Shown: piece by piece, positions 19,916 to 44,200 of the stretch
Layout: every line of letters begins with the position of its first letter
Numbering within the stretch: position 1 is the stretch's first letter
NCBI GenBank assembly: GCA_001724265.1
Contig: MEDY01000041.1
Coordinates: 1 to 64,000, forward strand
Direction: 5' to 3'
DNA: 64,000 bases
DNA from: Rhizaria sp. SCN 62-66
Lineage: Eukaryota
Position numbers and translations under genes: made by a program
Notes under the pieces: generated by a model
What the model saw: the letters and a program-made list of their open reading frames with translations, nothing else
Told to the model about the DNA's origin: nothing
Database searches by the model: none

Positions 19916-22900
19916 TTACGCAAGCTTAGAGCGCTTCAAATCGTGCTTCGCAACCTGTGCGTCCACACTCTCCACACCGTCGTCCTCATCGTCGTCGTCA
20001 GCGTTTTTGGTGTTAGTATTGTTGCGCCGGCTGTTGAAGCTACTGTTGCTGCCACTATGACTGCAAACCTCCTAATCGTCGTCGTCGCCCGCGGCGCCGT
20101 CGACCGGCCTCCCGTTACGGAATTCGTCCTTGACGATCCCCAGCGCGAGCAGCGAGGGCGTGTTGCGGCCCCTGAACTCGCTGTCGAGCCCGAAGAGGAT
20201 GTCCTCGCGGAGCCGGAACGAGATGCACATCATCTGCTTCAGCGGGGCCACGTTGCGCACGTCGTGCACGTACACGCCGTAGCGCTCCAGGCTCTCGAGC
20301 ATCACCGCGCTGTCGTAGATCGTCGCGACGCCGCCGTTCGCAGCACCGGCACCGGCGGCGGCGTTAGACTTGTTGTCCTTGCCGTTGTTGTTCTGTGCGT
20401 TGGCCTTGTTGCCGCCCTTGGAGCCCGGGACGTCGCGGCGGACCACGTTGCGGTGCGCCGCTTGGTAGAACATCTCCTTGCCCTCCGGCAGCGCCACCTC
20501 ATTCGCGATCTCAGTCGCAGTAGCAGAGGCATCTGCGGCGGCGGCGGTGGCTGCGGCGGCGGCGGCGACGGTGATGGGCGCGGTGGCCTGCGAGAGCGCG
20601 TCGCGCGTGTCGGCGCACACATCGAGCGACCACTGCGACTGGTGGCCCAGCGACTGCGCCTGCGACAGGCACTGGGGCTCAGACTGCACGTCGAGCGGCT
20701 GCTGCAGGTCCAGATGCTGCGACGGCAGGGTCTGTTGCGACGCGAAGGGGAGCACCGAGGACGAAGACGACATGACGCTCGCGATGGTGTTCGCGCGCGA
20801 GATCGTGCTGTTCTTCTTGTTGTTCTTACCGTCCTTGCTATTAACGTTACTTAGAACAGGCGCGTCAACAAGGTACCCATCAGCACGCTCTGGCACGCTG
20901 TCGCCAGTCATGCCGTTGCCGTTGCTGCCGCGGCGGTAAGGCGTGCCGACGGCGTAGCCGAGGTGCTCCTCGCCCATGCGCATGGCGTCGCCGACCCAGT
21001 CGGCCTCACAGCGCGCGAAGCAGTAGCAGTGCACCGTCGGCGCGCGCAGCCCCGCCGCGCGTAGATGCGCCAGAGTCACCGTCAACACTGGCCCAGACTG
21101 GGACTGCGAATCCGAGCCCGAGTCAGACTGAGAGATCGAGAGAGCAGGGGCAGTGAGGGACTCGGAGGCGGCGGTGTTGCTGCTCGAATCATTGTCGTTG
21201 CTGACGTTGGACTGGGGGATAACGATGGGGGCGCTGGTGTCGAGCCTGACGTGCTTGAGCAGAGCGGCCGCGTCCACGGCCACGGTCGCGCCGTAGCCGC
21301 CTGTGGGCGCGTCGCCGGCGCTGCATCCGCTGGGCGCCGCGGTGGCCACGGGGCCGTCCAGCGCGGTGAGGCCGAGCAAGGCTGCCCACTCGGTGTGCAC
21401 GCGGACACGCGGGCCGCTCGCAGCAGCAGCAGCAGCAGCGTCAGTAGCTTTGCCTTCAGTCACAATTGCGTTAGTAGGGACGGAGGAGCCGTAGAGGCGT
21501 GCGCGCGCGGACGCAGCGTCAGTCGCCAGGGTGTCCACACTCGTCACAGCCGAACCAGCAGCGCCGGCAGCGGTCGCCGTGGCGGCGGCGGCCTCGGCGG
21601 CGGCGATGAGAGTCTTATCGGCCGCGACCTGCGACTCAGTTAACGGGACCGGGGCCATGACCCAGGGCGCCAGCGCCGCGGGGACCGTGCTGCCGTAGTG
21701 CTCTGCGTGCGCGGGACCGAAAAACTGCGCGGGCAGCGCGGGGTAGTCGCTCAGCAGCCCCGCGAGACTGCGCGTCGTCGTCATCGCGTTGGTCACCGCA
21801 GCAGCATCAGTCGCGGCCGCAGGGGCGGGCGAGTAGAGTCCGTTGAAGACGTCAAGGAAAGTGACGGCCGAGGCGGGGAGGTTCATGATGACGTGGTCGA
21901 ACCATGGCACGACGCGCGCCTGGGGGCCGCCCGTCGCGGGGTAGGTCTCGGCGGCGGGCGCAGGGCGGCCCGGCGCCGAGGCCAGGGGCAGCGCGCGGGC
22001 CGCAATCGCGGCGCGGGGCGGCAGCGAGAGCAGCCGCTGGAGAGCCTGGAGCAGCTGCTGGCGGGCCGTGGCACGGATCAGCGCGCGCGCGTCGGCGTTG
22101 AGCACCGAGAGCTTCGAAGACGCGCGGTTGCGCAGAGAGTTCCTAAGTGAGGAAAAAAACCAGAGAAACAAACGAAGAGCAATTAAAATTGAGATAAAAT
22201 AGAAAATGAGATTTTGATAAATTTAAATTTGTTATAATTTGAGGAATATGTGCTAGTGAAATGTGATCGTACCTGTAGAGGTAGAGCGCGGACTTGGGGT
22301 TGAGGTCCGAGGCCCAGACCTCGCAGCCGCTCTGCGCAGCTGGGACCGCGAACGGGCCCACGCCCGCGAAGGGATCCAGCACAAATGACACGGGCGCGCG
22401 GCTCGCGTTAAGGGCCGACGCCGACGGGGGCTTGATGGTGACGCCGCCGACCTTCTTGGCGGCAGGCTTCGCTCCCGTCTCGCTCGCAGCCTTCTTTAAG
22501 TCACAGTCGGTGGTACTGTTGCTGGCGGCGCTGCCGTTGCGCTGGCGCTCGCCCTGCGCAGTCATAATCTGGACCACACGTCGGTGCTCCGTCTGCAGCC
22601 GCGAGTTCCAGTACACCTCGCCGAAGTCGAACTCGAACTCGGTCCCGTGCTCGTAGACCACCGTCATCAGCGATCCGTCGTACCCGTATCGGCCCTCGCC
22701 CGCAGCACTCGCTGCAGCAGCACCGGCGGCGTCGGTCACACCGGAGTCGCTGCTGCTGTTGTTGCCATCTGAGGCGACGACGGCGACGATGGAGCCCTTT
22801 GCGTCGCCGGAGCCTTTGAAGTAGTAAAAGTCGCTCTCAGCGTCGCCGCTCTTGCCCGCCGCGCCCGCATGCGACCGGGCACTCTTGGCGGCCAGCACCT

Positions 22901-23861: not shown

Positions 23862-24618
23862 CGAAGTAAGGCGGAAAGTGCACTGCAACAGCAGGAGGGC
23901 GCGACAACACACACGAAAGAAGAGAGTGCGTGGAGTGGGCTCAGTGCCAAGAAAGTGCTCGAGTCGCGCGGCGGGGGGAACAGCGGCGACAAAGGTCACG
24001 CACGAAAAGAAGGTGCGGAGTTGCTACGAAGGTGTACAGCAATGTGAAAACAAGTTAGAAGATGATGAGAAATAAATTCAAGATTTATGATGAAGCATCT
24101 GTCTGAAGATCATCGTAAATTTATGCTTGACGACTGGAATGGCGAGATATGGCTCTGCGGATTTCGTCCTCCGAGCCGATGGCTTCGGCACGTCCGCAGT
24201 CACCACAAACCTCGAAAGCAGTGCCACTCACAGCATAAAAGATTGATTCGCAGAGTGAAACTGGGACTGGTGTTAATGAGAGTGAGAGAAAGTTTAGAAG
24301 AACACTTGATATGTATTATTTTATTGGCCTTAATACTTGAAATCAAAATCACCGTTCGTCAGAGCGTCTAAAGCCACAACAAACAGCGAGCAAAGGTCAC
24401 TACAAAACAGAACCATAAGTAAAGCAATTAGCACACAAGGCACTTTGTGCACCGTCTATGAAACTCAAACTTTACTATTTTTAAGCTAAGAAAACAAAAA
24501 CCAGCGAATAGTACGTTCACACACAAAAGATAAGCGCAACAAAGCATTCCCAAGGTTTGCAATGATCGCTCAGTGACTCATGTTTCGTAGGTGTAATCGA
24601 CAATGCATTGTGCGTTGC

Positions 24619-27233
24619 TCAGACCTTGGTGAGAGCGGCGACGAGCAGCGCCCAGTTGAGGAACTTGAACCCGGCCTCCTCAAGCGCGACGACCCTGGCG
24701 TGGAGGCGCTCGAACGAGGCCATGCCGCCGCGCTTGACGAGCGCGCCCATGCCCTTGGAGATCACGGTCACGGGGTCCGTCGGCAGCTCGAGCACGAGCG
24801 CATGCACGTACGCCGTAATCTCGCCTTCGAGCCGCGCAGCCAGCCCGGCGTCCTCGTCCACGGGCTTGACACGCGCGGCCGCGGCCTGCGAGGAGACGGA
24901 GAGCTCGACGGCCTCGACCAGCTCTTGTAGCGAGTCGAACCGTGCGTGCTCGGCCTCGAGCTGCATCAGCCGGCCCAACAGCACGTGCACGTCCTCGCAC
25001 GCGCGCAGCAGCGGGTCGAGCGAGGCCGGCACGACCGAGTCGACGGCGTTGCCCAGCATGCCGCGCGGCCCACACGCGTTGCTGCGCGTGAGCAGGTTGT
25101 ACACGGCCGCGCGCACGGCGTTGGGGAACGTGCCTTTCTCCTTGCATGACACGGCGATAGCGCTAGCGAGCTCGTTCATCGATGCAAAGCGGTGGCCCGC
25201 CGTCTCAAGCGCGCGGATCGTCGACAAGCAGAGCTGCAGGTCGCCGCCGGCCGCGGAGAGAAGCGCGGCGAGCCCGGCGTAGGTGCAGAGCACGGCGCCG
25301 TTGTCGCCCTCGAAGATGGCCGACTCGCCGCCCAGGAAGAGCACCAGGTCGCCCATGTCGTCGGTGAACTGCAGCACCTCGAGTGAGCCGACCTCGAAGT
25401 CGTGCTGCGGGTCCTTGAGCGCGTACACCACCGGCGGCTGCCCCACGCCCACGGGGTGGCGCAGCACCTCGATCAGGTCCACCGTCGCGCGGCCCACCAC
25501 GGGCGCGTCCGCAAGGTCCTGCGGGCCCTGGCCGACGCAGATAAGCACGTCGAAGAAGTTGGAGCTGTGTGGGGCGAAGGCCAACATGCACGCCGCCTGG
25601 TAGTCGGGGCTCAGCGCGTTGGCCACGGCGGGCGTATAAGCCACCAGCGTCGGGTCCTGCCCCGGCTCGGCCGACCACACCGCGCAGAGGGTCGAGAACT
25701 GGCCGCGCTCGCTCAGGTGCGCCGGCAGGTTCGTTGCCGAGAAGGTCACGAGCACGGGGCGCTCACCGCCCAGCTGCGCGGCCGCGGCGCGGCGCTCCGC
25801 CAGCGCGGCCTCGTCCTCCTTGCGGTACTGCTCCAGCAGGAGTCGCTCCTCCTCTTCCGCTGCGGCGGTCGCGGCGGCGGCGGCGGCAGCGGCGGCGGCG
25901 GCGGCGGCCTCGGCGTCGGCGTCGGCGGCGCTGTCGCGGAAAAAGCGCTTGCCGTGCTGGCCGCGCACGCCGGCGCTGGTGAGCGCGCTGGCACCGTTCG
26001 CGCCACCTCTGCCGTGGCCCTCGTCGTCTTCGCCGCCGCTGGGGGAGTCGCCGTCGCCCGAGAGCTGCAGCGTGGGGCCCGCGGCAATGGCGGCGGCCAC
26101 GGCCGCGGCCTCCTGCTCCTCGTCCTCGGAGTCATCCTGGATGTCCAGCATGCGGTCCACCGCAGACATGTTGGCCTGGGAAGAAAGAAAGAGAACACAA
26201 AAAACGCAAAAGAGTGTCGATATGTGTTAGGGTCAGGGTGTGAGAGTGTGAAGATAGAGCCAAAAAACATTAAGAGAGAATCGATAATAAAAACAACAAC
26301 ACATGAGTTTAAGTATAGTATCTTTAGTTGATTTGATTCAAGACATACCTGACGCGCCTCCTTCTCGGCGCGCTTCTTGGCCCTGCGGGCCTCGAACTCC
26401 TTCATCTGCTGCTCGCGGAAGCGCGCGATCTCCTCCTGCCTGGCGGCCTCCTCCGCGCGCGCCTTCTCGGCGTCGTCAGCGGCGATCTGCTTCGCCAGCG
26501 TGTCGGCCAGCGCCTTGCGTCGCGCCTCGGCGTCCATGGCCCTGCGCTTGCGCTCCTGCTCCGCGCGCGCCTTCTCCCACTCCTCCTTCTTGCGCCGCTT
26601 CTCGGCCTCGCGCTTGGCCGACTCGGCCTCCGCGCGCAGCGCCGCGGCGCGGAGCTCCTTGAGCCGCTGCGCTTCTGCGTCGAGCACCTCCATGCTCTGG
26701 CTGGGCGCCATCGGCAACAGGTGCTCACGGCCCAGCAGCGCGCCCGTCATCGCACCCTGCACCGCGCTCGAGGTCTGGAAAAAGCCGGAGGGCAGGAACA
26801 GGTTCGCCAGCGCCTCCTCCGACGCCGCGCTCGACTGCGCCAGCGGCGGCTGCGACTGGCCGGCCGCGTAGTTGCTCAGCAGCGCGCCCGCATCGCCGTC
26901 CGCGCTGCTGCCACTGCTGGCGTCGGCGCGGCCGCCCGGGAGCATGCCGAGGTGCTGCAGCGCGCAGCAGACAAAGCCGGCGGAGATGATGGCGCCGTGG
27001 TGCTTGCTGAGCTCGGCGTTGCGCTCCAGCGACGCAGCCCACTGGCGCAAGAACTCGCTGGCCAGGATGCTGTGCTGACCCGAACGGGATGAGAGGAACA
27101 TCTCGACCAGGTGGGCGACTTCTTCGTCGCTGAAGACGATTTTGAGCGAAGCGTCAGACTGCACCATGTGTGCGAAGAGGCCCAGCAGGTCGACGTACTG
27201 CAGCTCGTCGGGTGACCAGTTGATGATGTCGTA

Positions 27234-27264
<31 letters not shown>

Positions 27265-28598
27265 TGCCCGTCGTGGCTGTCGTCGTCATCGTCGTCGTCG
27301 TCCTTGAGCTCGAGATTCTCCTCCTCAAAGTTGACGTCGTCCGCCTGCACCGAGCTCCGCGACCGGCCGACGCCGTTGCCGCTGCCGTTGCTGCCCTTGC
27401 GGCCGCTGACGTGCTTGCGGCCGCCGCCGGCCGCGCGCGAGCGGTGCCCGCTCACGCCACCCGCGGCGGAGGCGTTGACGAGCCGCGCCCGGCGCGCGGC
27501 CTCATCGCGCTTCTTGCGCTCCTCGACGGCCTTGGTGGCCATTGCGGCGCTGGTGCCGCCGATATCTCCCGCGAGCCCGGCCTCCTCGCGCTCGCGGCGG
27601 ACCTCCTCCAGCACCTTGTCGCGCTCGGCCTGCGGGTCAAAGCCCACATCCGCGGCCACAATGCCGCGCATATACTCGGTGATGAGATCGCCCTCGCGCA
27701 GCCGCGCGCGCAGGCGCTGGCGCACCGATGCCGCGCACTGCTCGGCCTCGTTGCGCAGCGCCGCGCGCCGCGCCGCGTAGGCGGTAACGGCGGCCTCCAT
27801 GTGCGCCTGGTGCTCTGGCTGCACGTGCACGGCCAGCAGCTGCGTCGCTAGCCACTGCAGCAGCGGCGCCAGCTCGACCTGCACGCGGGCCTCGGTGAAG
27901 GAGCGGCCCAGCAGCGGCTGCAGGTACTGGTGCAGGCGCGCGTGGAGCTGGCGCCGGCGCACGTGGCGCGGGTCGCCGTGCGCAACGGCGTTGAGCGGGT
28001 CCTTGCTGTCGTCGGCCAGCGGCAGCGAATACTCGTTGCTAAACTTGATGCCCGAGAGCGTGCGGCGGTGCTGCTGCGCGGCGAAGGTGGAGCCGACGAC
28101 GTTGGCCTTGCGCATCGGGTGCGGCGTGACCGTCGGCGGCCGCTTCGAGGGCTCGCCGGGAAAGAACGTCGGCCGGATGCAGACCTCGTTGCACTGGTCC
28201 ATGACTTCGCGCAGCGTGACGGAGCGGACGCCGTAGGCCGTGGCGAGGATGACCGACACGGTGTCGTAGGTAACGCCGTCCTCCATCGCTTTGTCCGAGA
28301 TGGAGATCAGCCCCACGCGGTCCCAGCGGTCCAGGTCGATTTGCGGCGCCAGGTGCAGCGACTGGATGCGATTCGCCATGTTGCGCGCCATTTCGTCGCG
28401 CACGGGGATGCCCAGCAGGAACGTGCGGGACGACATGAGGATGATGTCGAGGCTGCGCAGCTGGTGCAGCGCCAGGGTCGGGCGCTCGGGGCCGGAGCCA
28501 TAGCGCACGGAGGACGCCGACGAAGAGGAAAGCGTGGAGGAGGACGACGACGTCGTGCGGTTCCGGTGGAACACACTGCGGGAGATGGTCGCGCCCAT
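24619..28598 (-). CDS. Multidomain protein: myristoylation-like N-terminus, degenerate permuted papain-like motifs, coiled coil and C2-like domain; intron 26176-26348
   Basis: The CAG|GTATGT donor and CAG|GCC acceptor join the 950-aa and 516-aa ORFs in frame. Starts MGATIS. The C2-like stretch runs VTFSATNLP...TPAVANALSPDY...VGRATVDLIEVL. TGA stop. Confidence 0.7.
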
Positions 28599-29614
28599 CG
28601 TTGCTACTGTGTCACAAGGTCAATCACAACACGTGTGCGCCTGAGGTGCTGCTGTGTATGAAGGACGGACAAACAACCGGACAGGGCGCGAGCGGCGGGG
28701 CTCGGGGTTGTCGCAGAAGAGTCGAAAAAGAGTGCGTCTCTTGTTCTGGCTCTCGAGAAGAAGAGAGGTTGAGTTGAGAGACTGTAATAAGGGAAAATGG
28801 GGAGGAGGAGTGTTATGCATGTTAGTGAGGCATAGAAGTAAAATAAAGAGTGTAAACGCGTATAGTAACAAATAACAAATCGAATACAAGAGTAAGACTG
28901 ATATAGAAATCATCTATGACCTCGCAGGGCAGAGCTATGTTGACGTTTCGGAGCGTTTGCTGAGTGAATGCACGCTCGAAGGGATGGTCTGTGTAGGACC
29001 ATGACGTTAAGCTCAGAAGACACAAAAGGAGAAAATAACAAATCGCCAATAGACTCCACAAGAAAATAGGCATGCATGCGCCGGTGTCGTCACTTAGTGG
29101 CGCTTTATCCTCTTAAAGTTCCTCCTCTCGTACGAAGTAACTGTCGTCTCTCCGACCGATGACCGTGGGCACTCCCACAGTCACTTTGACCCGATCTTTT
29201 CGTCCTTCAGTTGACACCTTTCCCATCGATGCCTTAAGTCATGCTTGCGAGTGATAATATAATCTTTGGTTTATATTTACTATCTTTAATCATTTTTTCT
29301 CCAGTCGACTCCTTCCTCGTCTTCGACCCACTTAGACTTTGCTGTGTCCCAATTTGACCACAAACGATTTCCTCAATCTTATTTCAGATCCAGCGCTTTC
29401 ACCTCACGTATGTTTCTTACTTTGATTGCTCATTCATGTTTAACACTTGTTTTCACTTTAGACACACTACTTTTCTTGCAACTACACAAGGAAATTACAA
29501 CGTAAATCCTTCCAAGGAAGTAGACAAACAGGCAACACAACCTCGAGTCTTTGTCTTCTTTCACACTGAGCACTCACGCAGAATAGCCCACAACTTGTTT
29601 AATCGCTCCGACAC

Positions 29615-30658
29615 ATGGGTAGCAAGTGCTCTACGGAGGACGCGTCCTGTAAGAAAAATCCTGGCGGCAACAGCAACAACCATAATGCGCCCGGCAACAA
29701 GCTGAAAAACGGCAACAACGCCAGCAAGCAGCAAAAGCAGCCCAGTTTCCCTCTTAAGGAGCCCGAGTTCGCCTCATTCTCCGCAAACCACTTCGGCCAG
29801 CACCCGATCCCCGCCGCGTTTTACTGCAAGCGCCTGCTGACTCGGTACCCGCGGCTCAACTTCGACCCCGACCTGTTCCAGCTCCAGGTCGCCAGCGTGC
29901 GCGAGGTGGCGCGCGACGGTAACTGTTTCTATGCCGCCTGCATCTACGCCGCCGCGGAGTTCCTTGCGAAGAACCCCACGCACGCCTTAGCCGACCAGTT
30001 TGCGCCGACATTCACCGCGTTAGCCGCCCGCGCAGAGTCCGAGTTCAACCCCCCTAGCGGGGGCAGCAACATCAGCTGCGGTGTCCGCAACAGGCGCGCG
30101 CTGCCTCCGAACGAGGACACCGGCCCGATCGACACCGCGCCCCTGCTGGCGCTGCTCCGCACTGCGCGCGAGGGCGGCACCCCCGCGCTGGCGGCCGCGC
30201 TGCCCGCGTTCCTTGCTGACGGCGGGCTGTATCATGCCGTGCGGCTCATGCGTGGCGCGCTGGCGGCGCGGCTGCGCGACTGCTACAACGACGTCTTCCC
30301 GTTCCTGCCCGAGCAATATCAGGACGGCGACGACGACGGCGGCGACTTCAACAGCGGCTTTGAGCGCTTCCTGCGGTTCGAGGTGCTGCAGATGAGCGAG
30401 AGCGCGGACAGTCTGCAGATCTACCACACGGCCGAGATGCTGCGGCCGCTCGGGCTTGGCGTCCGCGTGCTGCGCGCCGAGGGCGGCCGCGAGGAGGCCT
30501 TCCCGGAAGGCCTGGCGCCGCACAGCCCCGCGGTCACGCTCCTGCACACGCCGGGGCACTTCGAGCTCCTGTACCTGCTCTCGGAGGAGCACAGCAGCGG
30601 CCAGAATGGGGGCGATTCAGAGTTGAAGGAAGGGCTTGGTGGTGATGGTGACTTTTGA
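29615..30658 (+). CDS. Otubain-like OTU deubiquitinase (peptidase C65)
   Basis: Catalytic Cys motif REVARDGNCFY, His motif LLHTPGHFELLY, and VLQMSESAD. Single exon, TGA stop. Confidence 0.85.
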   Translation: MGSKCSTEDASCKKNPGGNSNNHNAPGNKLKNGNNASKQQKQPSFPLKEPEFASFSANHFGQHPIPAAFYCKRLLTRYPRLNFDPDLFQLQVASVREVARDGNCFYAACIYAAAEFLAKNPTHALADQFAPTFTALAARAESEFNPPSGGSNISCGVRNRRALPPNEDTGPIDTAPLLALLRTAREGGTPALAAALPAFLADGGLYHAVRLMRGALAARLRDCYNDVFPFLPEQYQDGDDDGGDFNSGFERFLRFEVLQMSESADSLQIYHTAEMLRPLGLGVRVLRAEGGREEAFPEGLAPHSPAVTLLHTPGHFELLYLLSEEHSSGQNGGDSELKEGLGGDGDF

Positions 30659-31131
30659 AATCTATATTCGTGACTAGCACAGAGTTGTTTGTTCTTGTCT
30701 CTGTCCTTGCTTTTTGTAGACGTAAATCGTTTAGTTTTTCCACAATTCAATCATCAACATAGCGGTGTGATACTGTCAGTTGCGCTGAGGCTGTGGACAC
30801 TGTTGTCACGGGTGTTGGACCAAGATTTTTGTTTTTAGGCGGCGTGACGTATGTTTTTGCGTTGCGGTGTTTGCAAGAGATCAATCCGCACATAGCTTGT
30901 CCGACGCGCTTCATGTGTCCGCAGCTACGCTTGTTAGTATAATTTAATAGCATGTGCTGCTCCGCTGTGAATGCACTTGTACAATGAATACATTTGTACA
31001 GTACAAATATAAATATAGAGTTGATTTACAATACAATGTGAGTAGCTGTAGTAATGTAATGTGTGTGATGTACATGTGATCCAACATGTCGATGAGTTCG
31101 AGAAAACATATGTCTTCCTAATTTTGTGACA

Positions 31132-31438
31132 GCGTGATGGGTATGGGTGGTCTCATTGTAACGCGTCCTTTGATCACAAAACCATCGGGAAGGTAGTTGT
31201 TATGCAAGCAATCGACGCTACGCGTGCAACGTTGAAAGATGAGCTTTTTCAGGAGGTCGAGGGCTTTGTTCGGGTACAGCTCAACGGGCAAGATGGCAAA
31301 ATGGTCACTGACAGAGTGACTGTGACTGTGCACTACGAGTCTGCGCTCCATGCACAAAGACATGCGTTGAGTGCACGCGAGGGTGCGATGACGAACGGGC
31401 TTCTGTGGATGCGCGTGCTGTCTTATTACGTTATTTAA
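31132..31438 (+). other. Orphan exon-like ORF or gene fragment (about 100 codons)
   Basis: An open frame follows a TTTTGTGACAG acceptor-like site (RDGYGWSH...SYYVI-TAA). Its GC content is lower than in neighbouring genes and no upstream exon was found. Confidence 0.25.
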
Positions 31439-31890
31439 TTCTCTGCAATGCAACTAAGTGAGACTCAAAGACATGCCAAGTTGAGCAAAGAGCGATCGTC
31501 AGTGATTGTAGGTGTATTTATAGGTCGACGCAATGAACAGTAAGATGAATATTTGTTTGAGTTCGCCCTAAAGAGCGAGAATACACTACTAAACTAAAAA
31601 TCCCATTGTAGAGCGCACGAATACATTGTAGTTATGTATTGTTTGTTCATATTTACACAAAGACTTCGATACACACACAAATAATCAGTGTGGCCTCAAG
31701 AATCGAGCCGATTCTAAGTCAGAGCAGGCGCCTCAAGAGCTCGACACCAGTGCAGTTCGTTGACAAGTAGTATCGTCAACTTATTAGAAACACGAGCTCA
31801 TACATAGCTCTGGTTGGCTGTTGTTCAGCCACTTCAATCCTCACGGTCATTAGTCAGTACGTATTCATTCGCGCTCGTGAACCAGCCGCG

Positions 31891-32490
31891 TCACTTGCGC
31901 TTGATGAGGAAGTACATGCCCATGAAGAGCGCGAAGATGAACAACACCAGGTAGCACATGTAGCTCCCGCCGCCCGACTCGAGCAGCTTGGTGACCTTCT
32001 TGAGCGTCTGCGTCATGGCGCCACCCGCCGTGGTGAACGCGTCATCGACGTCGTCCAGGTAGCTCGACTTGGACTCCTTTCCGATCTCGATCGTGAGCTG
32101 CCGCAGCACGCCCACCTTGTCGTTCAGCTCGTCGATGAGCTCGTCGTTAGCCTCCTCATACAGCCGGTCGTGGCGCTCCTGCACCGCGCGCCGCTGCCGC
32201 TGCGGGTCGTGGGCCAAGTGACTGTATGCACCGCTGCTACCACTGACGGCGCCAGCGCCAGCGCCGAGGCCGGAGCCCGAGGAGGAGACGAAGGCGTTCT
32301 GGGCACTGCGCTGGCGCGGGTCGCTCGGGGAAGGACCAAAGAGGCTGCTGCCGTAGCTGTGCGGGGGAAAAAACGAACAAAGCGGAGAAGGACAAAGAAA
32401 TGCAATGTTAGACAGGAACGGAAGTGAGTGATCGCTAAATGGGGAGAGTTCGTCGCACAAAGAAAAGAAAGAGACGTACGAATCACCCAT
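31891..32490 (-). CDS. BET1: Qc-SNARE Bet1/Sft1-like protein, 2 exons (32490-32480, 32356-31891)
   Basis: SNARE motif EEANDELIDELNDKVGVLRQLTIEIGKE and a C-terminal transmembrane helix YMCYLVLFIFALFMGMYFLIKRK. Intron is GTACGT..CAG. Confidence 0.85.
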   Translation of the reverse strand: MGDSYVSFFSLCDELSPFSDHSLPFLSNIAFLCPSPLCSFFPPHSYGSSLFGPSPSDPRQRSAQNAFVSSSGSGLGAGAGAVSGSSGAYSHLAHDPQRQRRAVQERHDRLYEEANDELIDELNDKVGVLRQLTIEIGKESKSSYLDDVDDAFTTAGGAMTQTLKKVTKLLESGGGSYMCYLVLFIFALFMGMYFLIKRK

Positions 32491-32929
32491 AGTATAGAAG
32501 ATAACAACTACCGAGGTTGTGTTATGGAGGCCTTAGAGACAAGGCAAGAAGGATCGAAGAGCTGGAGAGAGGAGGGAAGCGAAGGATGACGAAGCAGGAA
32601 CGTGGTGTTTAAGGTGAGTTGTGAAAAGTGCTCGGACGAGAACGAGATCAATACCAGATATGAATTAATAAGAATATAATGTTATCGATAGTAGAAGAAA
32701 TTGCATGAAGCAGAAAACCTCGAGATTAACGGTCATTGGATGGCATGCGACTTTGGGAAAGTCGGGGCAAGCGACGTGACACAGCTGGTGGCTGGAACCG
32801 GGGCTGTGGTTGGCGCCTTGCTGCATTTACTTCATCGAGCTCGTTCACCATCAAAAGTCCGTCTCCAAGTTTAAACACAAGAAAACTACGATAAAAAGGT
32901 TGAATTTCTGACTGTTGTTAAATTACTTC

Positions 32930-35070
32930 ATGTCAAGGTCGCTTGATACGCTTCCATTTCCGCCTCACTGGCGCGGTACGTTTGCTTTGTTGTCGTCCCT
33001 CGCACCCCGCTCTTATTCCCACCGTGATCGCGCCTCACAACCTTCATCTCTTTATCCCAAACTTCCCCAGCGGCTCTGAAAAGCGCGAACTTTCTCACAG
33101 ACGCGGATGTGCTGTCCACGAAGGCGCACCGCCTGGCGCGCGAGACGAGCCTGACGCGCGAGGAGGCCGAGCACATCCGCCGCATCACTCGCGCGCACGC
33201 CGCCTCGCTGCCCCCCGTCCTTGCGCACCCCGGTGCAGCTGCCACAGCAGCGGCAGCGGGGTCCGCATTCGCCGCGGACGCCGCGAGTGCTGGCGCGACC
33301 ACAAACCCCGCACATGCAGTGGCTGGCCCAGTGCAGGCGGTGACTGGCCCCGGGCGCGCGGTGACGGCGCTGGAGCTGGCGCGCCACGGCGGCGTCTACG
33401 CGCTTGCCAGCCGCGCCGCCGCCTCGGCCTCCGCTTAGCAGCAGCCGCAGCAGCAGAGGGAGACGACGCCCGTGTGGGTGGTTGAGAAGCGCGCGCCGAC
33501 CGCGCTTGAGCTGCAGCTCTTTTATCGCAGCAACAACGCCGCGAACACGACGATCAACGACGGCGACAGTGCGAGCAGCGCGAGCGGCGCAAGTGCGGGT
33601 GCGAGCGCGAGTGCCGCGGACGCAGCCGCTGACGAAACTGATACCAAAGAGAACGCTACCGTCGACATCAATAGCGCAAGCTCTACTCGCGCTCGCGACC
33701 GTAATCAGCAGCTGCAGCAGCAGCAACATTCTCAGCAGCAGCAGCACCGTCCCCTGTTCCCTTCTCTCTTCCCGTCTCTATTCCCCCATACTACTTACCG
33801 CACACGCACTGACGCTGCGTCTGCGTCCGGTCTCGGCGCGAGCGCCGCTGCGCCTTCATCTGCGGCCTCTGCGGCCTCCGCAGCCGCGGCTGCGTCCGTG
33901 TCATCGGCCGTGTACCCCGTGGTCACGCTTGTGCGCGGCATTGACGCGCTCCTCGGCGGCGGACTCCAGCGTGGGCTTGTGACCGAGCTGGCGGGTGCGC
34001 CGGGTGCTGGCAAGACGCAGCTGGCGCTGCAGGCCGCGTGCGCCGTTGCGCTGCCCGCCGCGGTCGGCGGCTGCGACGGCGAGGTCATCTACATCGACGC
34101 CGAGGGCGCCGTGCGGCCCGGCCGGCTGCGCGAGATCGCGGAGGGCGTCGCTGCTAGGGTCGCCGCAGTAAACGAGGCCACACGTGCGCTGGCGCTCGCG
34201 GAGGCGGCGGCAGCGGCGGAGGCGGCGACCAAGCAGAGCCTTATTGGCGACGACGATGGTGGCGACGATGGTGGCGATCACAAGAATGACTCTGGTGCTT
34301 GTCCACAGAGCCCCGCACAACGCGCCCCCGCACAACGCGCCCCCGCACAACGCGCCCCCGCGCACAGCGCTCCCGCGCTGCTGTCGCTGAGCGCGGACGA
34401 CGTCCTGCGGCGCATCCATCTCATGCTGCCGCTAGACCGGACCGAGACGGCCGCGGCTGTGCGCGCGCTGCCGCAGCTGCTGGCGGCGCGGCCGCGCGTG
34501 TGCCTCGTCGTCGTCGACTCGGTCGCCACGCACTTCCGCGTCGCGCCGCTCGCGAGCCCCGGCTTCGCGGTCAACAGCGCTGGCTCCAACACAGCAGGGA
34601 TCACCGCGGGCGGCGCGGGCGTCGTGGCTGTGGCTGAGACTGTGCGCGCGCGCGCCGAGGCTGTGGCGATGCTCGCGGCGCAGCTGCAAGCCGTGGCCTG
34701 TGCGCGCGGCGTTGCCGTGCTCAGCGTGAACCAGGTCACCCTCAAGGACACCAACACCAACGCCAACGCCAACGCCGGCACAGCGAGCAGCGCCAGCGCG
34801 TTCGCTGCGGGCGACCGCGACCGCGAGCGTGAGCGCGAGCATGAGCGTGAGAGGCGGCTGGTGCCTGTGTTCGCGGACGCGTGGGCGCCGCTTTGCGCGT
34901 ACCGGCTCATGCTCTTCTGGCGCAGGGGCCGGCGCGTAGCGAGGCTCACCAAGGCGCCCGTGTGCGGCGGCCGCGAGTGCGAGTACGTCGTCTGCGAGAC
35001 CGGCGTCCAGGACGTTGAGCAGGAGCAAGACCAAGAGTTTGATCAAGATCAAGAGCAAGAACAAGACTGA
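32930..35070 (+). CDS. RAD51C: RAD51 paralogue RAD51C; intron 32976-33070; in-frame TAG at 33436-33438
   Basis: The spliced N-terminus MSRSLDTLPFPPHWRAALKSANFLTDADVLSTKAHRLARETSLTREEA resembles the RAD51C N-domain. Also IDALLGGGL, Walker A ELAGAPGAGKTQLALQ, GGCDGEVIYIDAEG, Walker B LVVVDSVA, SVNQVT and RLMLFW. Confidence 0.85.
34311..34360 (+). repeat. Coding minisatellite, 15-bp unit CCCCGCACAACGCGC x3 (PAQRA repeats)
   Basis: Three perfect tandem copies plus a partial copy, inside RAD51C. Confidence 0.9.
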
Positions 35071-35271
35071 GAGTCGAGAGCAGCCTCGTGACTACGGTTT
35101 AAATAACATGATATAGATTCAAGTTATATAGATTTGGAATGACATTGGTAATAATAAATGTATTAATTATACGAATACATATTTAAAGGATAAACTAATG
35201 TAAATAATTTTATCTCTCGTAAGAAAGATCAACAGTCCCAAATTTGTTTCTCCTCACAATTGTTTAGTCGC

Positions 35272-38200
35272 TCACTCGCTCTCGAGTCCAGGCGGTGCAG
35301 GCAACAGCCCCAAGCGATCAAAGAACATCTTGATGGCGTCCGCAGTGGCCATAACGCCGTAGACCTCGATGCGCTCGAATAGCACGGCGCGGCGGTAGCC
35401 GTCGCGCACGATGCCCAGCGCGGACCGCACGTGCTGGTGGGCGCGCCGCCGCTGCAGCCGCGCGCGCACGCGCCGCCACAGCCGCTGGATCTTGACTGCG
35501 GCCTTGTAGCGCATCTGCCGCTCGAGGGCCTGCTCCTGCGCCGTCTGCAGCTGGCGCTTGACCGAGCGACTCACGGCCGCGAGCCCGGCGCGGATGCGCA
35601 CGGCGGCGTGGAGCTTGATGAAGGCCAGCGCCGAGACAAGCAGCGTCGGTGTGCTCAGCAGCGCGCGCACCGTCGGGGCGGCGTGCTCGCTGTCGGCGGC
35701 GAAGTGCTGTTGCTTCTGCTGCTCATGGTCACTTTGTGACTTGTGACTACTGCTCGTCTTGCTGGCGCTGTCAGGATGGTTCTTGTCGTCACCCGCAGTT
35801 TTGTGGTCGCCGTGGTCGTCGCCGGTGCTCTTGCGGTGGCTCGCGGCCTGCGCTTCCTCGCGCTTCCGCCGCATCGCCAACTTCTCGCGCCACGCAATCT
35901 GCACCAGCGTCACAAGCGCATTCACGTACGCAACTTGCTCCTTCGCCACCAGCTGCTGCGACCGCTGCGCCTTGCGTGCCAAGAACCCGCGGACACCGTT
36001 CTGCAGCACCTTGACCGCCGCCGTGGCCTTGGCGGGCGTGGTGCCGTACTCCTTGACCAGCTTGTACCGGCGCCGCTCGCGCACGCCGCGCCAGCGCCGC
36101 TGAATCTGCACGGCCGCGCGCTCAAGCACGGTGCGCCGACGCTGCCGGAACGCGCGCCACGCGCGCTGGATCACCAGGGCGGCGTGCGCACGTGCGCGGG
36201 CCTCAAGAGTGCGCGCGCGCGCCGCGAGCCTGCGCCGCCACGCGCGCTGGATCACGACCGCGGCCTGCGTGGCGCGCATCTCGCGGGGCGGGAAGTGGCT
36301 CCACGACCGCAGCTGCGGCGCAGCGAGCGTGGCCGCGAACACGCGGAACCGGTCTTCGGCAGCGGCCTCCGCGGCGGCGGCTGCGGTCGCCGCGGCGGTC
36401 GCAGTCGCGCGGGCGAGAGCAAGCGCGCTGGCGGCCGAGCCAGTGCTGGCGTGGGTCGCTGCCGCAGCGGCCGCGGCAGCGGCAGAGGCCGAGGCGGCGG
36501 CCGCAGCGGTCGCGGCAGCCATTCTCGTCGCCACTGCCTTTCCGTTGGTGAGGTCAATCGTAGCGGTACTGTTTGCGTTATTGGCGTTCGTGTAGTTATT
36601 GGCGTTGTTGTTGGCGTTCTCTCTCCGGGCCGCGCGCTGTAGCTTCGACTTGACTGCTCCCCAGTCGACGAGCTCGGACAGAGACGGCGGCCGCCCGCCT
36701 CCGCAGAGCGCCACGAGAGCCCGGCCGCCGCTCACAACAAGGCTGTTACTACCAGCGCTTGCACTTGCGTCGCTATAGCCATAGCTGGTCGAGTTGCTGT
36801 TCACAGATTGAGCGCCGCAGTCTCCGATTGCAGCAACGGGAACCCAAGCGTAGCTGTACGGCGTGTCTGCAGTCTCGAACTGACTGCCGGGTGGCTGCGA
36901 CACGGCGTCCGCTGCCGCAACTGACACGAGCGCTGGCGGCGGAAAGTGTGCAAAGGGGAATGCGCCGAAGTTGACGCTGATCGACGGCGGCGTCGGTGCA
37001 GTCGTCGCAGTCGACAGCGCTGCGAACAGAGCTGCAGAGGCTGCCGAGGCATCGTGACCGAGCGCTGCAGTTGCGGCGTCATCACCGTTGCCACTCCCAC
37101 TACCCGCAGCGCCAGACTCGGGGTCCGCGCCAGTCACAGAGGTCGCGGCGGCGGCGGAGGCAAAGAAGCCGCGGGAACGCGTGCGTGCGTGGCCAGCAGC
37201 GCGCATCGCCGCTGTCTCCGGGTTACCAGTGTTGCCGCTCGCGGGGCCGTGGTTAGCCCCCATAATGCCGCTACTGCGCGGGTTCAGCATGCCTGACCCG
37301 CCAGAGCCGGACGCAGCCGCTGACGCCGAGGACGACGAGAGGAGCTGCTGCAGTGCAATCTGCGACTGCGACGGCGCTGCCGCAGCCGCTAGCGCGCCCG
37401 CAGCGCCCCACGCGTCGCTCTCACCCAACACAACGCCGTTGGCGCCCGCGCCCGCAGCGGGGTTGCGGCGTCCCTGCGCGTTGTGCGCGGCTGCGGCGGC
37501 GCTGAGCCGCGCGTCGCGCGCGATGCGGTGCCACAGCGCAGGGTCCTGGCTCGGCAGCGCGGGCGTCGCGTGCTCGCCGTCTCCGCCTGAGCGCCCGAAG
37601 CGCGCCGGCGGCGCCGCGGCGGCTGCGGCGGCAGCGGCCGCGGCAAATGCGGCGGCGCGCAGCAGGCGGCGGGCGCCTGACGTGCCGGCGCGGGGCGCGC
37701 GCGGGAGTGTGAGTGCGGCTGCCACAGGCGCGCTGGAGTCGCGGGAAGAGCCCGCGCCGGCGCCCGCTGTGGCCGCGATCACGGCAGAAGCTGCAGCGGC
37801 AAGAGAGAACGCTGCTGCACTCGATTTATCATTGGCATTCGCACTCGCGCTATTACCACTGCTGTTGGTGTTGCTGCTGGCATTAAGAGGGCTCGAGTTG
37901 GGGCTGGCGTTTGAGTTCGAGGGCGAGAGCGTCGAGGCGGGCGCTGTTGCAGCCGCAAGCGCCAGTTTGGCTCCGATGGAGATTGCGGGGCCTACCGCGG
38001 CGTTACGGCCGGTCTGGAGAGGGAGGGAGAGCACCGTGGACGCGAGGGCGAGGGACTGGGGCCGACGTATCTGCGGCGGCTGAGACTGCTGGTGTTGCTG
38101 CGACGACGAGGATGCAGGAGCAAGAGCGGTTGATGACAGAGACATATTCGCATCGCCACTGATACCGCTGTTGAGCGCGTTCGTGCCAGAGCTCTTGCGC

Positions 38201-41200
38201 GCGCCGCTGCTGCTTCCGGTCCGGACGCGGGTGACGCTGGAGCGCCTGCTGCCGGGCCGGCTGCCACTGCCAGAGCTGCCGCCAGTGTTGGCGTTTGCCG
38301 CGGAGGACGAGGGAGTGCCCAGTTTGCCCCCAGATGCGCGCTTACCGGCGCTGGTGCCATTGTTCGCGGGCGGCGAAAGCGGGCCTGAGGCGCGCGAGGC
38401 GGGGCGGGAAGCGGGGCGGGACGAGCCTGGAGCCGGGGAAGCTGCTCGCGACTGAGTGCGCGACTGGGAGCGCGACTGCAAGTCCGAGTGGGGCTGGGAG
38501 TCGGGGCGCAGCTCCGGCCGTGACTGCGAGCGCGACTGCGGGGGAGGAGTAGCTGAGCCAGCATCAACACCAGCGCGCGCAGTCGCGTTGTCATCACGCA
38601 TCTTGCTGCCATCGCTGGTGTTGTTCGTAGTGCTAGAGGCAGTGTTAGCAGTGGCGTTCACGACTGTGTTGCTGCTGCTGCCGCCTCGTGACTGTGTGCC
38701 GCGCGAGTGAGAGCGCGACCCAGGCCTTTGCTCATCGGCAACGGGAGTTGCGCTGTTCTCGCGGTCGCTTTCACTGACACTCAGCGCGGCAGAGCCCTTA
38801 CGCGAGTGCTTGCCGACGGAGCTCTTGCGCGAGTGAGACGCCCCACCCAGAGAGCCCCTCGCAGGGTTAATCGCTGCACTTGCATTCGCGTTGTTAGGCT
38901 TGCCAGTCTCAGGCCCACTGGTTACAGCAGCAGCAACCTTTTGTTGCTGAGGTTGCTGTTGCGGGGGAGATGCATGTACGCCTACGAGCTGCGACTGGGG
39001 CGCTTGTGCGTTGCCTCCACCGACGCTAGCGCCGCTGTTGGTATTCGCGCTGGCGCTGGGGAGGTACGACTCGCCGACGGCGTCGACGGCGGCCGTGCCC
39101 AGCAGCGCCACGGCCGGCCGCATCACTTGCGCGGCCAGCGCCGCGGCCTGCGCTGCCCGCTCGCGCGGCCCCCACATCATCGCGTCGGCACCGAAGACGG
39201 CAAGGAAGGGTCCACCGTCGGCGGCGACGTAGAGCGTGCCGCCGCTGAGGTCGATCATGAACGACACCACGCATGCCGCGGACGGCCGCGGCAGCGCGCT
39301 GGGGTCGTGCGTGAACATGCAGCGCACGGGGGCACTAAGAACGCAGCCGTTCGCGCCGGCGGAGATCGTGCCCGCGCTTGAGAACACGACGCCGCTGTTG
39401 CTGGTGCTGTTAAGGTTGGGGGCGGCGTCTGCGGACAGGGGCGCAACCCAGCGCAGCGAGCCGGGCACGCCGGGCGCGGGGGAGGCAGCGGGCACAGCGA
39501 CGGCCGGGTCCGGGCCGTGGTCGCGCACTACCTTGTACACGGCGCCGAGCACGCTGAGGCCGACGCCGGCGCCGAGGCCGAACCCGCCCAGAGACATAAC
39601 GGGGTTGGAGCTGCTGCTGGAGTTCGCGTGCGACTGGGCGATGATGGGCGCGCCGTCCGGACCAGGGGCCGCGTTCACCGTCAGTGCCGGCGCGCCGACG
39701 ACGCCGGGCAGCGTGATGCCGCCCCAGACGAGCGTGCCGTCGGAGCACAGCGCCATGCCGCGGCTGTGCGTGTGGCCAAAGGAAAAGGCCGCCGCGGGTG
39801 CCGGCCGCGCGCGGTCGCCGACGCCGCTGCCGCTAGGATTCGCGCCGTTCGCAGACGCGGTCGCAGGGTTTGACTGCAGTTGCGCCGCGGCAGGAGGCAG
39901 GTCCAACGGATCGCTAATGACACCGGGAATACTATTGCTGCCATGAGCGCCGTGATTGTGGCTGTGCGAGGGAAAGCGGTTTGAGTCCGAGTCGCTGTCG
40001 CTTTGGCTCCCGTCGTTGCTGCCGTTCAAAACAGGCTTACTGCTACTGTGGGACTTAGCACTGAGCTTGCGGCCGTACGCGCCCCCGCTGCTGCCGTGCT
40101 CAGAGTCTGCGACGCTGTCAGCATGCGTAGCGCGATGAGACTCGTCCTCGTTGCTGTCTTCAGCATCATCGCCGCGAGACATTGCCGCAGCAGCCTCAGC
40201 CTCAGCAGCAGCAGCGGCGGCAGCAGCAGCGGCGGCGGCCGTGGCAGCTGCAGTCGCAGCCGCCGCCGCCGTTACATTAGAGCCTCCACTGGCATTGCCG
40301 GCGTTGCTCCCGGCAGCAACAGTGCCACTGGCAGCAGCCACCGCTTGCCCGCCCGCCGCAGCCGCAGCGGCCGCAGCAGCCGCCGCTGCAGCAGCAGCCG
40401 TGGCCCTGGCCCTGCGCGCGGCCCGCGCAGCGCGGTCCCTGGCGGCGCGCGCGCGCTTGAGCTGCTTCGGCGGCGCGGCGGTGGCGACGTGCGCGACGCC
40501 GGCCATCCAGCTCTCGCGCGTGCCGTGCGCGTGCAGCTCCCAGTAGCTGCGCGCGAAGCGGGTCAGGTAGTGCACGTAGCGCGCCACGGCGGCGCGCGCG
40601 GCCAGCACGGCCTGCGGCTGCGTCATCGCAGACAGCGCGGTCGCCGCCGAGACCAGGGTTGCCCACGCGGCGCCCACGCCCGTCGGCAGGAGCTGCGGCT
40701 GCGGCTGCTGCTGGCCGCCTGCAGCGGAGTTGCCGGTGTGGCCCGACCCAGATGCGGGAGCCGTGGAGGCTGCGGGGAGAATATCCGGGATGTCCACCAG
40801 GGACGAGAGACTGAGGCCGTGCTGCGAGACCAGGCTGAGCAGCACGAGAGCGCGCGCGAGGGCCGCCGGAGCCACATACGCCGCATTCAGGTTGGGGTTC
40901 GCAGTTGCGGCGTTGTTGCTGCCGTCGGCAGAGCTGGCGTCAGGAGGGAACGGAAACACGCAGGATCCCGGGGGCGCGGCGGCGACGAGCGCAGCCCTGA
41001 GCTCGTCGGCAACCACGGGCACCGAGGCCGAGGCCGAGAGCTGCGTCCAGCGGCGGCCCACGTGCTCCGCCGCCTGCGACAGCGCGTGCGTGAGCAACAC
41101 GTCGAGCTTCGCCAGCGACGCCGGCGGCGCGTTGACCGTGGAGCCACCCGTCGAGTTGGCGCTCGCGCTGGCGAGGCCGAGCGCGGTTGAGGCCGCCGCG

Positions 41201-44200
41201 CTGGCCGCCGCGACGCCCGCGGCCGAGGCGCCCCCGGCGGCGGCGTCCGCGGTGCCGGCGATGTCAGCAGCAATGGCGGCGGCGCGCCACTGGCGCAGCA
41301 CAGCCTCGGCGACGCCAGGCGCGGCGGTGAGCAGCAGCTCGAGCTGGTCCCACGGCTGCGAGGGCAGGAAGGCGGACGGCAGGAGGTCCGCAATGATGAC
41401 GGCGGCCACGGTCGCGCACGAGGCGTAGTCGCCGCGGGAGCGCGCGAAGGCCAGCAGCGCGTCGGAGCGGGACGGCAGCTGCGACGCGAACGACACGCCG
41501 CGGCCGCTCATGTCGACCATAGACGCCGCCGAGGCGCCGCCACCGCCGCCGCCGTACCTGCCTGTGCTGTTGCTGTGGTGGTGGCTAGAGGTGGGCGCGA
41601 TGGTCGCCATCGATGACGCGGGCAGCAGCGGGGCCGCGCCGGGCGCCAGGACGACGCCGCCGGGGCCGGGCGTCGAGGCCAGCGGCGCCGAGTCGAGCCG
41701 TGGCAACGGCAGCGCGGCGGCCGCAGCGGCGGGACGCAGGGCGCCGGCGCTCGCGGTGTTGGCGCTGCTGTTGATGAGGCTGATGGTCGTGTCCAGAGGA
41801 GCTGCCGCCGCGCCATTAGCGCTGATGGACTGTGTCGCAGAGAACGGAGCCGGTCCAGTGACGCGCGAGCCCGCGAACACGAGCGGGTGGTGGTGACTGG
41901 ACTCGCCACCCTCTTCGTAGACAACTAAACTGCGAGCGCTCGCGCTACTGCTGCTCGCACTGCTGCCACCGTATGACGCGGTAAGCGTCGACAGCGCTGC
42001 CATTGCTTCCGTCCCGGCAGCCTTATTCCGCGCACCCGCCCCAGCGCCAGCGTTTTGCTGCTGGTAGGCCGTGTACGCGCTCCCCTGCGCCGCGGCGGGC
42101 GCGCCGCCGCCGAAGCCAAGCAGCAGCCCGGGGGCGCGGTATGCGCGGTGCGTCAGCGTCGCGATGCTGTACCCGCCCACACTAGCGCTGTTGCAGTTGG
42201 CTGCGTTGGCATTCGCACTGTTGACGTGAGCGTTGTTGGCGTTGACATTAGCGTTCGAGAGCGGGGCGGGAGGGAGCCGGGGGATGATGTGCAGCGGGCG
42301 CGAGCCGAACGCGTAGCCCCAAGTCGGCGCGAGCAGAGCCCACAGCGCGCAGAGCGAGGGGGACACCGCGCCCGCGCCCAGGGCAAGCCCGTTGCCGCCG
42401 CTGGCGCTGTTGTGGAGGGACTTTGCGATGGTGAGCGCGGTGGGCGACGCCGCTGAGGACAGTGAAAGCGGCGACACCTCAGCGGAGCCGCCGTTCGCAC
42501 CGAGAGTGCCGGAGTTGCTGGGTAGCGCCAGGTGCTGAGCGTTCTCGGCAGTGCTCTGGTTGCGCCTGTGCTTGAACCCGCCGCCGCCGCCACCAGCGTT
42601 GCTGTTGTTGTAATTGGCCGTGGCCAGCAGCAGCCCTGTCGGCGATGCCAAATCCGCAGCCAGCCCGCTAAACACACTGATACCAGCGTTGGCACCGGTC
42701 GCGTTCGGGCCGTAGCGGCCGCTGCGCGCCGCCGCGGTGGCCTCAACGAGCCCCGCCCACATTTCGGCGACTGCGTTGTCGGTCACGGGCGCGCGCGACT
42801 GGTTGCGGAGCACCGCGCCGGCCCAGTGTGTGACCGTGGGCGCGTGCGCGGGCACGTGCAGCGTGACTGATGCAGAGGCCGGGTCCAGGCGCAGGCGGGA
42901 GACCTCGGCCGCAGCGGTCATGTCCGAAACCAGGCGCAGCGGCGGCACGCGCAGTGCACTGCCCTTGCCGCCGCCGCTGGAGCCACTCGTGCTGCCGCCA
43001 TGGGCGTGCGCCTGGGTCGCGGTGGGGGCGAGCCGGGCCCATAGCTGCGCGGCGGCGGACGCGGCGCCGAGAGACGGCGCGGGGCCGGATAAGGCGCGCA
43101 GCATGAGCAGGAACGGGGACAGCCGGCCCTGCGCCTGGCCCTGTCCCTGCGACTGCGGCTGCTGAGCTGTCTTGTTGTCGCTGTTGCTCTCAACCGCTGT
43201 GCCACTGCTACTGCTCCCACCGGCGTTGGTGTTGTTGGAAAGCGTGTTGGCCGCGGCGTCGACCAGCTGGGACGGAGTGAGCCCCAGCTCCCACCGCACG
43301 CCGGCCTCGGCCGCAGTCGCGCCGACGCCGCCGTTCACGCCGCCGCCGCGCTTATTGTTGTTGCCGTTGCCAGAGCTAGGCCCGGTCACCGTGCCTGCGC
43401 CCACCCCGGCAAGGCCATTGCCCCTGCCAATAGAGCTTGAGCCGGCGCTGATGCCGCCACTGGCGCTGCCATCGTAGCCCGAAGAGCCCTCAGCAACAGT
43501 CGCGTTCAGCACCGCGCTGACGGCTGGGTCAAGCGGCGCCGCGCCGTAGGGCGCGACAGCGTCCGCGTCCCGCGCAACGGAGCCGAACGCGGCGCCGACG
43601 ACCGGCGGCGGGGGGAGCGGGAAGGCCGCCGCGGCCACGGACGCGGGCGCGGCGGCGCGGGCGGCCTTGGCGGCGGGCGCGGCGGCGCCGAGGCGGGCCA
43701 GGTCGCCCGTGGTGCGCGAGTAGGTGTACGCGGCGTTGACGTACGGCAGCAGCGCGGAGCAGAAGACAAGCGAGAGCGGGTACGGCAACAGCGACGCCAT
43801 CGCCACGCCGGGGTCGTTCTCGCCGCTGCCGCTGCTGTCGAGGCTGTCGGCAGCGCCGGAGCCCATGAGACGCGCCTGCGGCTGCAGCAGCGACTGCGCG
43901 GTATCGCCGCCGGTCGCGCCCGCGCCAGTGCTTGACGGAGCGAGCGGCCCGTAGAGAAGCAGCGAGGGGTCGAGCACCCTGTTGTCGTGCAGCGCCATTG
44001 CACGTTTGACGACGGCAGCGCTGTTGCTGTTACCCGAGCCCTCGCCATTCTCGCCGCCCTCGACTGCGGCGACGACGACGGTGCTGCCGCTCACTGTGCC
44101 CGCGTTCGTGCCCGCACCGCCGCCCTGCTGCTGCTGCAGCGGCGCGATGCTGCTGACTGCGTCAGCGGCGTCCTGCCCGAGGCGCCCCAGCAGTGCGCAC

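Follow-up and report, generated by a model that had tools for sequence, protein, structure and literature searches.

An in-frame TAG in a RAD51C gene of a wastewater protist, probably translated as a rare sense codon

The gene for the repair protein RAD51C in contig MEDY01000041.1 (Rhizaria sp. SCN 62-66, GenBank assembly GCA_001724265.1) carries an in-frame TAG between its N-terminal helical domain and its ATPase core. The gene lies in the first 64,000 nucleotides of the forward strand, the whole of which was analysed and is called the window below. The TAG is genuine and is retained in RNA-type libraries. In this organism TAG is probably no longer a terminator and is instead translated, with very rare use. 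Translation of the codon had been proposed in the original prediction, which was made from the letters of the window; that proposal has gained from a second TAG standing before coding sequence and from the finding that TAG terminates 0 of 19 genes, and it is still short of proof.

The TAG of RAD51C and its presence in independent libraries

On rereading, the letters GCC TCC GCT TAG CAG CAG CCG CAG CAG CAG stand at 33427-33456 as first described, with the TAG at 33436-33438. It is codon 138 of 681 in the spliced frame (...AASASA-X-QQPQQQR in protein letters). From the ATG at 32930 to the TGA at 35068-35070 (Table 1) it is, as had been claimed, the sole interruption of that frame, and the 543 codons 3' of it hold no further stop and no frameshift. 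Over the 50 codons after the TAG the coding score is +0.38, and the other two frames are negative. The translation contains no Met between the TAG and Walker A, so the ATPase half has no AUG start of its own.

Logan contigs of four sequencing runs were mapped on positions 17001-37000. In the contig pieces listed, three runs cover the TAG, each with no other letters along the whole contig concerned: a 3.8-kb contig of run X4 (30538-34340; another study, 2025; DNA-like, with even depth over spacers), a contig of run X5 (33256-33946; a cDNA library from a third study, 2024) and a contig of run X8 (33234-33514; a polyA metatranscriptome). At 33436 itself, the first letter of the TAG, no run gives another letter in its contigs. 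In three spacer bins (23671-24337, 28340-29006 and 32342-33008) the depth of X5 and X8 is 0-0.64, against 3-11 over RAD51C, and the depth of X3 and X4 is 3.6-21. With spacer depth near nil relative to RAD51C, X5 and X8 behave as RNA; X5 was nevertheless labelled 'probably DNA' by the mapping program.

Across 33234-33946 the RNA-type contigs of X5 and X8 are unspliced and colinear with the DNA. RNA cover of exon 1 and intron 1 of RAD51C is almost nil, and among the 15 of 126 joints listed there is no intron joint for any gene, so that splicing is undemonstrated in these libraries. Such contigs can reveal that a form exists, not that it is lacking; a second allele or a minor spliced form would escape them, and Logan contigs drop minor variants. 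A scan of prokaryotic genome contigs for stray pieces of this organism gave archaeal thermosomes only, and an exact search for the TAG region in them was negative.

The identity of the gene as RAD51C is supported by comparison with solved structures. A profile of the protein and its orthologue gave E-values of 1e-34 for RAD51C, 2e-23 for RadA, 3e-18 for RAD51B, 6e-16 for RAD51 and 1e-11 for XRCC3, the assignment being a comparison of profile E-values. Walker A and B are both aligned: the RAD51C chains of solved structures match three segments, which hold Walker A, Walker B and the strands at the C-terminal end, and a Pfam Rad51 match (5e-21) lies around Walker A. Closest among the solved structures is animal RAD51C of the BCDX2 and CX3 complexes (chains 8faz_C and 8gja_A), which has in common with the window protein the Walker A and B motifs, the N-terminal helical domain, a TALEL-type linker helix and the ATPase core. 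Unlike animal RAD51C, the window protein is about twice as long, through low-complexity inserts, and has the in-frame TAG. Within the 64-kb window no genes for RAD51 paralogue partners were found.

The view that this gene is not decayed was upheld, in that it retains 19 of 19 columns invariant across 40 RAD51C-like sequences. An AlphaFold model on the 40-sequence alignment has a mean predicted local distance difference test (pLDDT) score of 68.6, with a predicted N-terminal helical domain at 84-97 over residues 1-50 (helices at 2-46) and a predicted ATPase core above 90. The TAG is residue 123 of exon 2; a predicted helix (100-122) ends there, and pLDDT is below 50 at 124-143. The N-terminal helical domain is linked to the core and is colinear with the orthologue described next. 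Judged by its sequence, the RAD51C gene is intact.

A HMMER scan of 1.84 billion representative proteins for RAD51C relatives found one close orthologue, P0129 (534 residues, E 6e-67), and also retrieved the window's own N-terminal fragment, P0130, of 109 residues and ending at the TAG. A word-based search with the C-terminal half of RAD51C returned distant paralogues only, the orthologue coming from the full HMMER scan. P0129 proved to be one continuous protein that matches both sides of the TAG. Its alignment runs from the N-terminus to TALEVARRGGV (TALELARHGGV in the window), to about 3-7 residues before the TAG, and the exon 2 product up to the TAG aligns with residues 17-117 of P0129; beyond the TAG the alignment resumes in the linker and then covers the entire core. 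The TAG itself opens a stretch of about 85 low-complexity residues that is absent from the orthologue. Opposite it stands Leu by BLASTP local alignment and a gap by MAFFT, the pairing being unreliable in low-complexity sequence.

The P0129 cluster has six members, comprising 534-residue forms, in which exon 1 is joined to exon 2, and 522-residue forms that start inside the intron. These two kinds of form indicate that the position of intron 1 is common to both organisms, and that transcript and genomic versions both exist for the related organism. The 534-residue forms start MSRAISTLPFPPRWRNALEAANF, for which the window counterpart is MSRSLDTLPFPPHWR-A-ALKSANF; the exon 1 product MSRSLDTLPFPPHWR matches their N-terminus MSRAISTLPFPPRWR.

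A direct repeat of 25 nt, 84% identical, occurs at 33354-33378 and 33489-33513 (+), with the copies 135 nt (45 codons) apart and in frame. The copies encode RAVTALEL and RAPTALEL, so that the motif of the RAD51C linker helix is found on either side of the TAG, and P0129 has the first copy of this repeat only. The repeat has the look of a partial duplication, old and in frame, inside the lineage-specific insert.

Over the 20 kb mapped (17001-37000) the four runs show six single-base differences, one 3-base insertion (35363) and one replaced spacer of 89 nt (29235-29325). Wastewater systems sampled in several studies between 2015 and 2025 appear to share a nearly clonal population of the organism.

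A second TAG and the terminators of the window

Both strands were scanned for stops with 40 open codons on either side, and these were scored by codon usage, with seven long genes as the training set. The top two were a TAG at 20074 (-) and the RAD51C TAG at 33436 (+); most others are antisense to known genes. Among these, plus-strand TAGs at 50965, 53920, 56647 and 56713 score well and were rejected as antisense to the NFU1 and ABCA genes. TAGs before the open reading frame (ORF) starts at 12544, 16239, 22143 and 50610 (-) were likewise set aside, since their places are in upstream non-coding sequence or within an intron.

The TAG at 20074 is the apparent end of a TYW2-like gene with the Pfam domains TYW2_N_2 and TRM5-TYW2. 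Its surroundings read ...DDDD-X-EVCSHSGSNSSFNSR, with the codons TAG GAG GTT, and the DNA is reproduced in contigs of X3 (18576-20501) and X4 (19309-20329). A search for relatives of the tail returned the window's own 699-residue ORF ending at the TAG only.

As a control, 19 gene ends in the window were examined, 10 with a Pfam match and the other 9 recognised by ORF length and coding score. The 19 terminators are 13 TGA, 6 TAA and no TAG. Beyond each of these TGA or TAA ends there are 1-8 in-frame stops in 51 codons, the score lies between -0.94 and +0.01, and G+C falls. Beyond both TAGs there are no stops, the in-frame score is +0.38 with the other frames negative, and G+C is 0.54-0.67; in the TYW2-like gene the drop in G+C comes only past its TAA. 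For comparison, TAG ends the frame in 15 of 72 protist contigs carrying CCT-alpha among the matches listed, and in 5 of 20 where G+C at third codon positions (GC3) is at least 0.7, a crude base rate for which 72 contigs were kept and 8 of 80 were dropped for length. At a TAG rate of 21%, the probability of finding none in 19 is about 0.011; with the TYW2 TAG taken as a true end, the probability of at most one in 19 is about 0.07.

Table 1. Positions of the RAD51C gene parts and of the end of the TYW2-like gene in the window
Feature	Positions	Strand	Basis or remark
RAD51C exon 1: ATG, 15 codons and the first base of codon 16	32930..32975	+	sequence reading
RAD51C intron 1, 95 nt, GTACGTTT...TTCCCCAG, 54% G+C	32976..33070	+	
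Exon 2 before the TAG: N-terminal helical domain, disordered stretch, TALELARHGGV helix	33071..33435	+	
In-frame TAG, RAD51C codon 138	33436..33438	+	sequence; contigs X4, X5 and X8; coding score
Remainder of RAD51C: low-complexity linker, then ATPase core with Walker A (GAPGAGKTQ) and Walker B (LVVVDS)	33439..35067	+	
RAD51C terminator TGA	35068..35070	+	G+C from 0.63 to 0.27 beyond; 8 in-frame stops in 51 codons
Second TAG, apparent end of the TYW2-like gene (...GAAGDDDD TAG)	20072..20074	-	stop scan; contigs X3 and X4
51 in-frame codons beyond the second TAG, GC3 0.67	19919..20071	-	coding score +0.38; out of frame -0.52 and -1.22
TAA closing the TYW2-like extension	19916..19918	-	G+C 0.36 beyond; 5 in-frame stops in 51 codons

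Further features of the window were noted alongside. Four introns recognised by eye, at 32976, 22272 (-), 14754 (-) and about 50735 (-), all start with GTACG (GTACGTTT, GTACGATC, GTACGTTA and GTACGCGG), an unusually uniform donor among these four, and the three whose 3' ends were located have a pyrimidine-rich tract followed by TAG or CAG. A small gene at 14489-15048 (-), with a first exon beginning MDSNSAFCVFYMKTGCCRHGDRCSRKH..., resembles by eye a CCCH zinc-finger splicing factor (U2AF small subunit), and its TAG 'end' falls within the GTACGTTAG donor of its intron. At 35272-46881 (-) a single ORF runs uninterrupted for 3869 codons, and its coding score is moderate. A 1418-codon ORF at 6344-10600 (+) has a leucine carboxyl methyltransferase domain, as TYW4/LCMT2 proteins do, and lies about 10 kb from the TYW2-like gene (19916-23790, -), so that the wybutosine tRNA-modification pathway may have two of its genes close together in the window.

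Translation of TAG and competing explanations

If TAG is translated, the ribosome would read UAG as an amino acid, and TGA and TAA would stay terminators. RAD51C would then be a working gene whose mRNA keeps UAG at codon 138, in the flexible stretch that links the N-terminal domain to the ATPase core, and yields a single RAD51C protein of 681 residues. The TYW2-like gene would be read through its UAG for 51 more codons to the TAA. Decoding would presumably depend on a tRNA with anticodon CUA and/or on an eRF1 that does not recognise UAG. By analogy the inserted amino acid is most likely Gln, which is favoured by general precedent and by the single transition that leads from CAG to TAG where a CAG run begins. 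Glu would fit the TYW2 context (DDDD_EV) just as well, and Leu stands opposite the RAD51C codon in the BLASTP alignment; none of these is decisive. The earlier suggestion that TAG encodes Gln is plausible but unproven. Each of the two TAGs lies in a segment that is non-conserved, of low complexity and probably disordered, so that no amino acid can be assigned from them.

Some explanations would take the TAG out of the message. It could be absent from the mRNA because it forms the last three bases of an in-frame intron, for which the donors GTGACT (33340) and GTGACG (33361) are candidates, or because it falls within an intron. Both TAGs are part of a TTAG string, real introns here finish in TTAG or CCAG, and in-frame GT sites occur at 33340, 33361 and 33394. 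However, the polyA contig of X8 and the cDNA contig of X5 pass through the region colinearly with no joint listed there, and an intron of this kind would remove TALELARHGGV, which the orthologue keeps. The candidate intron would also have 78-80% G+C, against 27-54% in three real introns, and the first description was right that no GTACG donor exists in 33071-33438. Given the unspliced RNA-type contigs, the continuous orthologue, the missing donor and the high G+C, the 3' splice site that had been offered as an alternative is now very improbable. Little credence can be given, too, to a sequencing or assembly error or to RNA editing of UAG to CAG, for which no support was found. X4, X5 and X8, whose contigs repeat the same letters, come from two studies apart from the source study, which makes an error, as once allowed for, unlikely, and the RNA-type contigs too read T at 33436, where editing would have altered it.

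Two further explanations keep the standard code and accept the TAG as it stands. RAD51C could be a young null allele that arose from CAG to TAG, heterozygous or clonally fixed, and the TYW2-like gene could end at a recent, harmless TAG. The change from CAG is a single transition heading a CAG run, the population is nearly clonal (six differences in 20 kb over four runs), no other TAG is found in about 16,000 codons, both sites are tolerant of truncation or in dispensable tails, and a second allele could have been lost among the minor variants that the contigs drop. On the other side, two independent recent stop gains among 19 genes would be required, with no other decay; RAD51C keeps all of its 19 invariant columns and has 543 open codons downstream. 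Three studies have the same TAG, the source run dating from 2015 and the others from 2024 and 2025, and the absence of TAG ends from the other 18 genes (the probability of about 0.07 given above) would be left unexplained. A nonsense allele, which had been listed originally, is still a live rival and is judged unlikely; were it true, the finding would reduce to an ordinary young null allele of a repair gene (a pseudogene allele). Leaky or programmed readthrough at both TAGs, by near-cognate or natural suppressor tRNAs, would yield some full-length RAD51C and an extended TYW2 isoform, and it seems decidedly improbable. C-terminal extension by readthrough, as would be the case for TYW2, is a known phenomenon, and the CAG after the RAD51C TAG has a partial likeness to the CAR with which the readthrough context of tobacco mosaic virus and yeast begins. 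In the TYW2 context (TAG GAG GTT), however, the CAR motif is lacking. No stable downstream RNA structure was found (z of +1.0 and +1.7 against shuffles, no better than at two true terminators), and it would be unusual for a repair protein to rely on a leak for its whole catalytic half. Moreover, a working TAG stop should end some genes, and 0 of the 18 others end in it.

Translation of TAG has observations to answer as well. Only two TAGs occur in about 16,000 codons (counted over 24 segments, one of them out of frame), five times below the rarest sense codon, ATA, with 11, and none is in frame in the ORFs of 3869, 1760, 1507 and 1418 codons. Both sites are non-conserved and of low complexity, where truncation (in the TYW2 tail) or any residue would be tolerated. 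To judge from codon usage, most single-base nonsense changes in such GC3-rich genes give TAG, so that finding TAG twice, and not TGA or TAA, is weak evidence; the near-identity of the runs also leaves room for a nonsense allele that arose lately and became fixed in one clone. The 64-kb window contains neither a tRNA gene nor an Rfam match. In Iotanema spirale, where UAG is reported as reassigned, it makes up about 8% of Gln codons (PMC5304391). The very low use of TAG in the window would mean either that the change is young or that the codon is poorly tolerated. Tentatively, the window may record an incipient code change, in which TAG has been lost as a terminator and its use as a sense codon has just begun, at about one in 8,000 codons and in disordered low-complexity segments only; this narrower reading is possible, though doubtful.

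The organism and code changes elsewhere

The stretch occurs in runs dated 2015-2025, which are metagenomes of bioreactors, wastewater, activated sludge and fuel cells. CCT-alpha of the window has 77-80% identity to metagenomic proteins. Among named organisms it comes closest to Plasmodiophora (66%), Amorphochlora (65%) and oomycetes (about 62%); by these matches the organism would be a protist of the stramenopile-alveolate-rhizarian group, perhaps a rhizarian. A scan of metagenome DNA with CCT-alpha gave nothing above 69% identity among the matches listed. The window has GC-rich coding sequence (GC3 about 0.8-0.9), AT-rich spacers and short introns with GTACG donors. Strongly GC-rich coding sequence is untypical of ciliates.

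Nuclear code changes outside the ciliates are known from a handful of lineages, and a literature search found none in Cercozoa or in wastewater protists among the 20 of 371 records listed. A change of UAG while UAA is still a stop was, according to its report, first described in 2017 (PMC5304391). In the account given there of I. spirale (Fornicata), UAG encodes Gln and UAA and UGA are stops, with 204 in-frame UAGs in 126 genes (Panek et al. 2017, PMC5304391). The window is similar to that account in that UAG alone is changed, TGA and TAA are stops, no genes end in UAG, sense UAG is scarce and Gln is the likeliest meaning. It differs in having two TAGs in about 19 genes, or about 0.4% of Gln codons if TAG is Gln, and in belonging to an unrelated lineage. 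The same report describes Rhizaria sp. exLh (Sainouroidea), in which UAG encodes Leu and is the commonest Leu codon in proteasome genes, with UAA as the main stop (PMC5304391). As far as that description goes, both are non-ciliates with UAG alone changed, the best named CCT-alpha matches of the window are Rhizaria, and one pairing, unreliable, is with Leu; in contrast to exLh, UAG is almost absent from the window and TGA is the main stop.

Phyllopharyngean ciliates are reported to read UAG as Leu or Gln, with suppressor tRNAs in two genomes (McGowan et al. 2024, PMC11687900). That case, as reported, resembles the present one in the mining of environmental genome data and in the change of UAG alone. 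These ciliates differ, on the same account, in their widespread sense UAG and in UAA as the preferred stop, and the best CCT-alpha matches of the window are to Rhizaria and oomycetes. One ciliate is said to have UAA and UAG that differ in meaning.

Gene callers that assume the standard code split or truncate genes of this kind: databases have RAD51C as a 109-residue piece and the TYW2-like ORF as ending at its TAG. If TAG is indeed translated, this protist would be a further independent lineage with a change of UAG only, in an organism recurring in wastewater from 2015 to 2025. With the codon so rare, it might show an early stage of reassignment. It would then be the sparsest use of a reassigned UAG known, and would offer a test case for how stop codons are captured, by prior disappearance or through ambiguous decoding.

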